From the sequence record NC_047812.1: 44,234 bases of DNA. One strand, written 5' to 3'. The translations under genes and the position numbers were made by a program. Of the stretch, positions 4,384 to 5,124 are shown one piece after another (the stretch's first letter is position 1; each line of letters opens with the position of its first letter). Source of the DNA: Escherichia phage vB_EcoS_CEB_EC3a. Under the pieces are notes generated by a model, which was given only the letters and a program-made list of their open reading frames with translations, was not told the DNA's origin and did no database searches.

Positions 4384-4661
4384 GTGAGTTAACAATCTGG
4401 TTTATCGCGGGGCTGATTACTTGGGCTTACTTTTTAATCGTTTAGATGGAGATTGTTAAAAAGAGCTTGCATCACTGACCGGAATTATCTAATATTAACC
4501 ACGTAGACAAACGAGGCCACCAGGTGGCAACGGCGCACGGAGCGCAACTACTAAGTCCGTTGCTCATTAAGTAGCGTAGGCGGCATTAAGACCTAGCGCA
4601 AATAGGCAGATTAACCGGCTGTATCAGGCAGCCCCGGAGCCGTAACCGGGAATCATCAAAA

Positions 4662-4739
4662 GCTCTGCTAGCTCAACAGGACAGCAGCAACGACCTTCTA
4701 AGTCGTAGGTTACTGGTTCGAATCCAGTGCGGAGCGCCA
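4662..4739 (+). tRNA. tRNA-Arg (anticodon TCT), CCA encoded
   Basis: Manual cloverleaf: acceptor GCTCTGC/GCGGAGC, anticodon stem ACGAC/GTCGT with loop CTTCTAA, T-arm ACTGG-TTCGAAT-CCAGT, discriminator G + CCA. Confidence 0.8.
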
Positions 4740-4745
4740 AATTAA

Positions 4746-4847
4746 CGTCGCGTTGCTAATGTTGGTTAAAGGGTGGAGCTTATACCTCCATAAAGCAATC
4801 TCCAGATAAGAGATGTAACGCAGGTTCGATTCCTGCCGCGACGACCA
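4746..4847 (+). tRNA. atypical tRNA-like gene (102 nt), possibly tRNA-Ile (anticodon GAT) with ~24-nt hairpin inserted in D-loop; CCA encoded
   Basis: Perfect 7-bp acceptor CGTCGCG/CGCGACG, canonical T-arm GCAGG-TTCGATT-CCTGC, anticodon-like hairpin ATCTC-CAGATAA-GAGAT, extra hairpin TGGAG-CTTATAC-CTCCA at 4774-4790. Confidence 0.5.
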
Positions 4848-4862
4848 ATAAAGGAGTTCATT

Positions 4863-5045
4863 ATGTGGGATGTGAAGTTGTCCATTCGCTTAATGGGCCG
4901 CTCGTGCAAGAATTGCACTCAAGATTATATCGCGTCAGTTGCCGCAATCAGCGCTGAGGATGCGGTAGCGAAAGTAAAGGATATGTCAGGCGCTGACCCT
5001 GACACCCACAAATTCCTGGTAGCTTACGTTCGTGAGCAAAAGTAA
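4863..5045 (+). CDS. hypothetical protein
   Basis: ORF with AAGGAG RBS right after tRNAs. Confidence 0.55.
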   Translation: MWDVKLSIRLMGRSCKNCTQDYIASVAAISAEDAVAKVKDMSGADPDTHKFLVAYVREQK

Positions 5046-5090
5046 AAAGTGTTATACCCTCGTTAAGTTTCGTTTCTCTCGTTGTTTTTA

Positions 5091-5113
5091 GCCCTCGCTT
5101 GAGGGCTTTTTTT
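5091..5113 (+). terminator. intrinsic terminator
   Basis: GCCCTC-GCTT-GAGGGC hairpin followed by TTTTTTT. Confidence 0.75.
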
Positions 5114-5124
5114 CGTCTGCAATA

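Follow-up and report, generated by a model that had tools for sequence, protein, structure and literature searches.

Which molecule is encoded by the 102-nt element that lies directly behind a tRNA-Arg(TCT) gene in Escherichia phage vB_EcoS_CEB_EC3a (NC_047812.1), and which of its two anticodon-like hairpins would be read on the ribosome? The stretch analyzed (44,234 nt, called the window below) represents a ~44-kb E. coli siphophage of the Drexlerviridae (Braunvirinae). A preliminary description of the letters alone had reported a 102-nt element with a 7-bp acceptor stem, a T arm, a discriminator, an encoded CCA and two hairpins, here called hairpin 1 or arm 1 (anticodon triplet UAU) and hairpin 2 or arm 2 (triplet GAU). 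All of these parts were recovered base for base at the same coordinates (Table 1), and the element does begin right after tRNA-Arg(TCT), with a gap of 6 nt. The description left open whether this is a functional tRNA with an expansion, a tRNA carrying a mini-intron-like insert, or a decoy. The element is a real tRNA gene, and the sequence evidence favors the first of these options. The UAU of arm 1 is probably the decoding anticodon, and we give about an even chance to the fuller reading developed here, that of an AUA-decoding tRNA-Ile in which arm 2 acts as a GAU pseudo-anticodon and supplies the identity set of isoleucyl-tRNA synthetase (IleRS). The anatomy, the helices, a tertiary pair, the loop invariance, the distribution of the family and its co-occurrence with tRNA-Ile(GAU) genes were established computationally.

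The Rfam tRNA family RF00005 matched the element at 41.3 bits, where the gathering score is 29; the E-value, calculated over the whole window, is 1.7e-5. The resulting alignment took hairpin 1 as the anticodon arm (UAU) and treated the following 26-29 nt as an insertion in the variable region. Around the locus, leader included, Rfam at E≤10 returned two tRNA matches, no match to another family and none to an intron. The 7-bp acceptor stem, the 5-bp T stem with a UUCRANY loop and the D-loop GG are all present and maintained by covariation, and the Levitt 15:48 contact of the L shape is present with its purine one position later than usual; what is missing is a D loop of ordinary size closed by a canonical D stem of 3-4 bp. 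As to the check by covariance models and tRNA predictors proposed in the preliminary description, Rfam accepted a cloverleaf, but ARAGORN called neither the full element nor its relatives of the 101-105-nt form. A tRNA-Glu call made by ARAGORN on the element at a relaxed threshold was discarded as meaningless. Both folds envisaged earlier do exist, the Rfam alignment corresponding to the fold with the UAU arm in place and the RNAfold minimum-energy structure to the one with hairpin 1 in the D loop, where a UUGC/GCAA D stem encloses it. Single-sequence RNAfold reproduced the shared helices only in part and provided no basis for choosing between the two.

Covariation was examined in an alignment of 67 distinct relatives (alignment A2); some counts refer to 87 family sequences and others to 135. 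Across the 67 sequences, 96.9% of the cells pair, none of 500 shuffles attained the observed covariation, and slid controls likewise remained far below the observed pairing and covariation. Double-sided changes were found at every pair of the acceptor stem, hairpin 1 and hairpin 2 and at three of the five T-stem pairs. A Levitt-type pair R16:Y48, formed by the third D-loop base (G4761) and the base preceding the T stem (C4819), is G:C in 69 and A:U in 66 of the 135 sequences, with no exception, and this covariation is evidence for what would be an L-shaped core. The connector in front of the T stem measures 5 nt in 73 of 87 sequences, and its last base is always the pyrimidine that pairs with R16. 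A73 and CCA are each kept in 86 of 87, and A14, the D-loop GG and the T loop are invariant or nearly so.

Both hairpin loops are conserved as well. In hairpin 1 the loop is Y-U-U-A-U-A-N throughout, even where the scan pattern left it free, and that of hairpin 2 always reads Y-A-G-A-U-A-A in members obtained by BLAST or by a pattern independent of hairpin 2. In the window the latter (CAGAUAA) differs from the loop of E. coli tRNA-Ile(GAU), CUGAUAA, at position 33 alone. Pair 31-39 is always Watson-Crick in arm 2; in arm 1 it is mismatched in 57 of 87 sequences (alignment columns 33 and 41), giving a 4-bp stem with a 9-nt loop, and it is G-C in the window (4778 and 4786).

Each hairpin is preceded, in equal register, by its own copy of the 3' D-stem strand (AAGG-G before hairpin 1, AAGC-A before hairpin 2). 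Pairing of the 5' D strand with copy 2 leaves hairpin 1 inside the D loop and brings hairpin 2 to the anticodon position, followed by a 5-nt variable loop. In the 67 sequences these pairs are G10-C (66, with one U-A), C11-G (67) and U12-A (65, with two C-G). None of them is ever broken in the 135 sequences, which contain three compensatory events (G-C to U-A, G-C to C-G and U-A to C-G), and in the larger set position 13 covaries with its partner 22' (C-G, G-C in two clades, and U-A). The D stem in the primary drawing of the preliminary description, which put hairpin 1 in the D loop, is thus supported, and covariation argues firmly for the fold with the UAU hairpin inside the D loop. With copy 1, C11-G is invariant in the window lineage, U12-A forms in 57 of 67 sequences, and G10 is opposed by G in 66 of 67; Xanthomonadales members have two perfect GAGC copies. 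The nearest-neighbour energies of the two folds in the window are -25.7 and -27.9 kcal/mol, a gap of ~2 kcal/mol.

The arrangement has the appearance of a tRNA-Ile in which positions 21-22 to 43-44 were duplicated internally in tandem; in one member (L326), 15 of 24 positions agree between the two 24-nt units. After in silico deletion of the second unit ARAGORN called tRNA-Ile(tat), and after deletion of the first unit it called tRNA-Ile(gat). The option of a mini-intron-like insert did not hold up, since neither a bulge-helix-bulge motif nor group I features are present and the insert is a conserved, covarying hairpin outside the anticodon loop. A 'hybrid' three-dimensional model, with the conserved D stem stacked on the UAU hairpin, was rejected; it has a T shape and an anticodon-CCA distance of ~55 Å vs ~75 Å by rough estimate.

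The loop of arm 1 (CUUAUAC, 4779-4785) presents UAU together with U33 and A37, as an AUA-decoding anticodon should, and has the standard Y32-U33...A37 signature of an anticodon loop. We consider UAU to be the probable decoding anticodon because of the shorter relatives of the element, the co-resident tRNA-Ile(GAU) genes and the rare-codon partner gene. The shorter relatives have a canonical D arm, the UAU hairpin at the anticodon position, the YAGAUAA hairpin next to it and then 4-5 nt up to the T stem; ARAGORN calls them tRNA-Ile(tat), and they sit in phage arrays of 17-24 tRNA genes that include a normal tRNA-Ile(gat). A normal tRNA-Ile(GAU) and the long tRNA are present together on at least 23 contigs. 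The partner in the window, tRNA-Arg(UCU), decodes AGA, the other classic rare codon, and the phage uses ATA and AGA at 9.0 and 11.4 per 1000 codons, above the E. coli level in both cases. In view of the shorter relatives, the co-resident genes and the arm-1 signature, the GAU anticodon implied by the primary drawing is probably wrong.

Not all normal-length tRNA-Ile(GAU) genes of these contigs have U33. Their loops read CCGAUAA in 6 of 30 and AAGAUAA in 2 of 30, and the presence of such genes means that A33 is no proof that arm 2 cannot decode. Loci of this kind, with C33 or A33, are L005 732-807, L264 14383-14457 and L269 3901-3976, together with L320 6991-7063, L232 3972-4045 and L252 489-563 in the same list; two other normal-length tRNA-Ile(GAU) genes have the loop CTGATTA, without A37. 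The C33 or A33 of these normal phage tRNAs could represent escape from a host nuclease.

Isoleucine identity in E. coli depends strongly on the anticodon and the discriminator, on t6A37, and on the minor pairs C4-G69, U12-A23 and C29-G41 (PMC9976931). The window element has A73 and U12-A, as well as C29-G41 (in arm 2) and C4-G69, the last two of which vary across the family. The anticodon-loop part of the set, G34 A35 U36 A37 A38, is found in arm 2 and not in arm 1, which has U34. On a UAU version of tRNA-Ile2, E. coli IleRS reaches 1.1% of its normal kcat/Km, and a UAU tRNA misreads AUG on E. coli ribosomes (Taniguchi et al., PMC3575796). A phage UAU tRNA would thus face a charging handicap of ~100-fold or more. 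Arm 2 would supply the determinants that a UAU tRNA lacks, hence our proposal that arm 2 is what IleRS recognizes, with arm 1 being read on the ribosome. In engineered tRNAs, a pseudo-anticodon in the variable arm raised charging by a synthetase with a matching binding domain (Mukai 2020, PMC7590224). The base at position 32 is the same in arm 2 and in the co-resident tRNA-Ile(GAU) for 18 of 23 contigs, which are not phylogenetically independent.

We considered that such a tRNA could work as follows. The phage-borne tRNA-Ile would be transcribed together with tRNA-Arg(UCU) from the candidate promoter (about 4467-4495) and would supply a decoder for the rare codon AUA. Two tandem anticodon-type arms would lie between the D region and the T arm, each behind its own 3' D-strand copy, and arm 2 would be a GAU pseudo-anticodon carrying the anticodon-loop identity set of bacterial IleRS. 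With the synthetase on arm 2 and the ribosome on arm 1, AUA decoding would become independent of the host lysidine enzyme TilS. The single 5' D strand may pair with either copy, so that either arm could occupy the anticodon-arm position of the L shape. In the window form, the well-supported fold would present arm 2 as the regular anticodon arm, a position at which IleRS recognition would be geometrically simple, and the other fold would be required for decoding. In the shorter form the canonical connections to the core would be divided, the 5' one belonging to arm 1 and the 3' one to arm 2, and either arm could stack under the D stem. We infer expression, charging with isoleucine, the choice of decoding arm, the reading of arm 2 by IleRS and fold switching from these sequence comparisons. 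A more far-reaching version, in which the tRNA has two states, a GAU-arm cloverleaf for IleRS and a UAU-arm cloverleaf for reading AUA, and has been spread by phages as a portable TilS-independent decoder, is tentative and in our judgment rather doubtful.

Several observations weigh against an AUA-decoding tRNA with a pseudo-anticodon. The D stem that would place the UAU arm canonically is weak in the window lineage, and the well-supported D stem places the GAU arm there; UAU decoding would therefore need a refold or an unusual geometry. In the shorter relatives arm 2 consists of 3 Watson-Crick pairs only, and access of the synthetase to its loop is problematic; with class I synthetases, the variable side of a bound tRNA normally points into the solvent. 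The A33 of arm 2 is invariant and without explanation, and it would be compatible with decoding by arm 2. Two shorter relatives, found incidentally, have the loop CAGAUUA, without A37. Plain 71-73-nt tRNA(UAU) genes with no second arm, few in number, occur in viral contigs. Finally, most close phage relatives lack the gene, which is therefore dispensable.

Several other explanations were weighed. If arm 2, with GAU and A33, were the true decoding arm, the gene would specify a tRNA-Ile for AUC/AUU and the UAU hairpin would be a D-loop insertion, for example for protein binding or as bait. The covariation-supported D stem that brings arm 2 to the anticodon position, with a canonical variable loop of 5 nt and the Levitt pair behind it, fits this idea, as does the pair 31-39, always Watson-Crick in arm 2 and mismatched in 57 of 87 arm-1 sequences. 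Normal-length phage tRNA-Ile(GAU) genes with C33 or A33 do occur, and ARAGORN reads the Xanthomonadales copies as tRNA-Ile(gat). However, arm 1 is canonically placed and arm 2 has just 3 bp in the shorter relatives, a normal tRNA-Ile(GAU) is already available on at least 23 contigs, and the invariant arm-1 signature (U33, UAU, A37) would be left without explanation, so we regard decoding by arm 2 as distinctly unlikely. Arm 2 might instead serve decoding and not charging, by restraining UAU to AUA and away from AUG or by directing or blocking modification of U34. A fidelity device of this type would be useful to a UAU tRNA, which cannot tell AUA from AUG on E. coli ribosomes, and the AUAA of the arm-2 loop complements U33-U36 in arm 1. 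An intramolecular kissing contact between the loops (UUAU with AUAA) was nevertheless set aside, as four A-U pairs make it weak and the 3-bp arm of the shorter relatives cannot reach the anticodon loop. A role in decoding also gives no account of the invariant G34' or of the match between the loop and the IleRS identity set, and we consider it unlikely.

The third option of the preliminary description, a decoy, fared less well than a functional tRNA. As a pure decoy or nuclease-resistant bait, the RNA would display two isoleucine anticodon loops to a host defence that targets tRNAs and have no role in translation. GAU loops without U33 are seen repeatedly among phage tRNA-Ile genes, the element is an accessory gene in the phage group of the window, and Stenotrophomonas copies lie in an island next to an OLD-family nuclease gene; changes in the anticodon loop are a known means by which phage tRNAs counter anticodon nucleases (PMC10264068). 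Yet A73, CCA, the T loop, the D-loop GG and the Levitt pair are all retained, as for a charged, ribosome-fitting tRNA, and the gene occupies the AUA slot of near-complete phage tRNA sets. The bacterial Schlafen literature yielded no relevant isoleucine link, and we know of no anticodon nuclease specific for tRNA-Ile. A pure decoy is accordingly rated quite improbable. Very improbable is a class II tRNA charged by leucyl-tRNA synthetase or another long-arm synthetase, with AUA partly recoded as proposed for nematode nev-tRNA-Ile(UAU). A73 suits leucine identity, and class II tRNAs with UAU that accept leucine in vitro are known (PMC3333845, PMC4300185), but the invariant GAUAA loop plays no part in identity for leucine or serine, the G73 required for serine is absent, and the linkers of the supposed variable arm are unlike those of class II tRNAs and pair with the D strand. 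We give hardly any credence to a dead relic of the internal duplication or a precursor that loses the extra 24 nt. The two units do resemble a tandem duplication (15 of 24 positions identical in L326), and deletion of either gives a canonical tRNA; but in unrelated phages and hosts compensatory changes have preserved both units, neither a bulge-helix-bulge motif nor group I intron features are present, and we know of no bacterial pathway for excision of such a 24-nt tRNA insert.

Phage PCEc3 has a near-identical copy annotated as a 102-nt tRNA-Ile; several GenBank records label the gene tRNA-Ile and many leave it unannotated. PCEc3 and BEK6 have the gene and most other close relatives (e.g. 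SU57) lack it. The segment missing from SU57-type relatives is exactly 108 nt long and comprises the AATTAA spacer together with the 102-nt gene; the gap has a CCA at either edge, that of tRNA-Arg and that of the element (window 4737-4847 vs L002 (SU57) 1838-1845). This CCA-bounded polymorphism suggests loss or gain of the gene through recombination between neighbouring tRNA 3' ends. The more distant Drexlerviridae Opt-79, ETEP102 and ESCO41 have the same pair of tRNA-Arg and long tRNA with other acceptor stems. A sensitive BLAST search with 111 nt found full-length copies in a number of unrelated phages, at 75-98% identity: Vibrio phages Pylo/River4, 12VC501 and WD615, Klebsiella phage KP13-26, Pectobacterium phages PhiM1, Arno162 and Wc4, and Xanthomonas jumbo phage Xoo-sp13. 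Full-length copies span Drexlerviridae, Schitoviridae, Autographiviridae, Ounavirinae, Stephanstirmvirinae and a jumbo Xanthomonas phage. As a separate matter, the records of Pseudomonas phage PsgS01F (PP134917.1) and Escherichia phage PCEc3 are both 44,679 bp long and both 98.8% identical to the window over the segment compared, and the host label of one of them may be wrong.

Pattern scans of IMG/VR (viral contigs), of one genome per bacterial species and of metagenomes extended the family. More than 120 matches each came from IMG/VR and from metagenomes, among the matches listed, and at least 195 distinct tRNA-like sequences with both loops were collected. At least 135 distinct sequences are of the window type (two hairpins, 101-105 nt), and about 58, among the matches listed, are of the shorter type (89-97 nt). 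In bacterial genomes the element is rare, with 39 loci among 185,579 species, mostly Xanthomonadales. These numbers, with the conservation described above, indicate that the family is widespread and under selection. A similarity search of 5,426 complete E. coli genomes found no copy, and a prophage or host gene of E. coli was ruled out on this basis. On a Stenotrophomonas chromosome (L344 3291-3393), the element lies beside genes for a KfrA_N protein and an OLD-family nuclease (AAA_15 + TOPRIM), surroundings that appear island-like and point to a mobile-island or defence context.

In the window the element belongs to a transcription unit, closed by a terminator, that comprises a leader, tRNA-Arg, tRNA-Ile and a 60-aa open reading frame (4863-5045). 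The candidate promoter is kept in relatives, and the ETEP102 record has a promoter annotation at the homologous site; a consensus promoter scan gave no call at 4467-4495 because the -35 hexamer matches at 3 of 6 positions only. The leader is non-coding, nearly invariant among Braunvirinae and partly conserved in other Drexlerviridae. It contains a 5' hairpin with compensatory changes (GCCAC-CAG-GTGGC, 4516-4528) and a 3' hairpin (CCCGG-AGCCGTAA-CCGGG, 4633-4650), and it may represent either a small RNA of the phage or a structured leader of the pre-tRNA.

Table 1. Features of the two-armed tRNA gene and of its transcription unit (window coordinates).
Feature	Position	Strand	Evidence or remark
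Candidate sigma-70-like promoter of the tRNA operon	4467..4495	+	-35 TTGCAT 4467-4472, 17-nt spacer, -10 TAATAT 4490-4495
Structured leader, ~155 nt, from promoter to tRNA-Arg	4503..4661	+	Context, outside the element
Canonical tRNA-Arg(UCU), upstream partner in the operon	4662..4739	+	ARAGORN; Rfam 55.5 bits
Two-armed tRNA-Ile gene including encoded CCA, 102 nt	4746..4847	+	Rfam tRNA 41.3 bits; PCEc3 annotation; family alignment A2
Acceptor 5' strand CGTCGCG, pairs with 4837-4843	4746..4752	+	Double-sided changes in 7 of 7 pairs; 99.8% of cells paired
D stem, sole 5' strand GCUA (G10 C11 U12 A13)	4755..4758	+	Partner is 4769-4772 or 4793-4796
D-loop segment ATGTTGGTTA with A14, G18 G19 and Levitt-type purine G4761	4759..4768	+	A14, U15 and GG invariant; G4761 covaries with C4819
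3' D-stem strand copy 1, AAGG, plus position 26 (G)	4769..4773	+	Weak D stem of the cloverleaf with the UAU arm in place
Hairpin 1 (arm 1), TGGAG-CTTATAC-CTCCA, 5-bp stem, 7-nt loop CUUAUAC	4774..4790	+	5 of 5 stem pairs covary
UAU, presumed AUA-decoding anticodon, within hairpin 1	4781-4783	+	Loop at 4779-4785; U33 U34 A35 U36 A37 invariant
3' D-stem strand copy 2, AAGC, plus position 26' (A)	4793..4797	+	D stem of the cloverleaf with the GAU arm in place
Hairpin 2 (arm 2), ATCTC-CAGATAA-GAGAT, 5-bp stem, 7-nt loop CAGAUAA	4798..4814	+	5 of 5 stem pairs covary
Putative GAU pseudo-anticodon (4805-4807) with A33 (4804), in hairpin 2	4804-4807	+	Invariance of AGAUAA
Connector GUAAC, 5 nt; variable loop in the fold with hairpin 2 as anticodon arm; includes Levitt partner C4819	4815..4819	+	
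T arm GCAGG-UUCGAUU-CCUGC	4820..4836	+	99.7% of cells paired, three pairs covary, loop invariant
Acceptor 3' strand CGCGACG (4837-4843), discriminator A73 (4844), encoded CCA (4845-4847)	4837..4847	+	
Intrinsic terminator closing the unit	5090..5116	+	Terminator scan

One further tRNA-like gene and a candidate for another were observed in the material collected. In an Actinobacillus genome (L337 7487-7562), a tRNA-Arg(UCU)-like gene directly 3' of the long tRNA-Ile has an 8-nt anticodon loop, TTCTAAGC, for which ARAGORN gives a four-base anticodon. A conserved element of ~119 nt (GCTTGCTGAAGTTTAACTACAC...GGAAGATAAGGAGTTAAACAG..GGTTCGATTCC..GAGCACCT), with an acceptor-like stem and a T arm, is found in L234, L255, L258 and L279 and may be another oversized tRNA-like RNA of phage tRNA arrays.

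Among described systems, tRNA-Ile2 of Mycoplasma mobile likewise uses UAU for AUA without lysidine and meets the same problems of IleRS recognition and AUG misreading; it is an ordinary 76-nt cloverleaf, and the solution lies on the enzyme side, with Arg865 in its IleRS (PMC3575796). In the phage case, by contrast, the host enzyme is unchanged and the tRNA bears a second, GAU arm. The usual bacterial tRNA-Ile2 (CAU converted with lysidine) fills the same codon slot and has A73, but its gene anticodon is CAT and not TAT, it depends on TilS and it has no extra arm. Class II tRNAs (Leu, Ser, Tyr), nev-tRNA-Ile(UAU) (PMC3333845) and allo-tRNA(UAU) (PMC5389517) also have an extra hairpin between anticodon and T arms, with UAU in some; their arm loops, however, are short and not conserved, the arms have no likeness to an anticodon arm, and none of these tRNAs is known to have a duplicated D strand. 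Allo-tRNAs have 8/4 or 9/3 acceptor/T stems (PMC5389517), whereas the phage element has 7/5. The window element differs from class II in its 7-nt 5' linker, 4 nt of which pair with the D strand, in its 7-nt invariant loop and in its abnormal D arm; the shorter relatives are nearer to the class II layout.

The engineered tRNAs of Mukai 2020 (PMC7590224) resemble the proposed phage system in that an anticodon mimic in the variable arm recruits an anticodon-binding domain and parts identity from decoding; they are man-made, concern histidine and use a synthetase fused to an extra domain, whereas the phage element is natural and would need unmodified host IleRS. Hairpins that copy a synthetase-recognized anticodon loop are also known from the E. 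coli thrS operator and from plant-virus tRNA-like structures (PMC9976931), which are mRNA or genomic elements and not decoding tRNAs. The nuclease-escaping phage tRNAs share a non-canonical base in an anticodon-type loop (here A33 of arm 2, and C33 or A33 in neighbouring tRNAs) but are single-armed (PMC10264068). Literature searches, full-text searches included, and reviews on non-canonical tRNAs and tRNA identity returned no description of tandem anticodon arms, an invariant GAU loop or a duplicated D strand. The nearest known molecules are the plain tRNA-Ile(UAU) of Mycoplasma mobile, the UAU class II tRNAs of nematodes and Acidobacteria, and the engineered pseudo-anticodon tRNAs.

Since ARAGORN misses the 101-105-nt form and many GenBank records leave the gene unannotated, phage tRNA censuses and codon-usage analyses under-count AUA decoders. 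The element is also a tRNA whose two near-isoenergetic cloverleaves can be put to a direct test. If the proposal is right, this would be, to our knowledge, the first natural tRNA with identity and decoding on separate anticodon-type arms, a separation that has so far been built artificially by code engineers. An E. coli-type IleRS charges UAU ~100-fold worse, and cells therefore need lysidine and TilS; phages would have solved this poor charging on the tRNA side, by adding a second anticodon arm that the synthetase can read.

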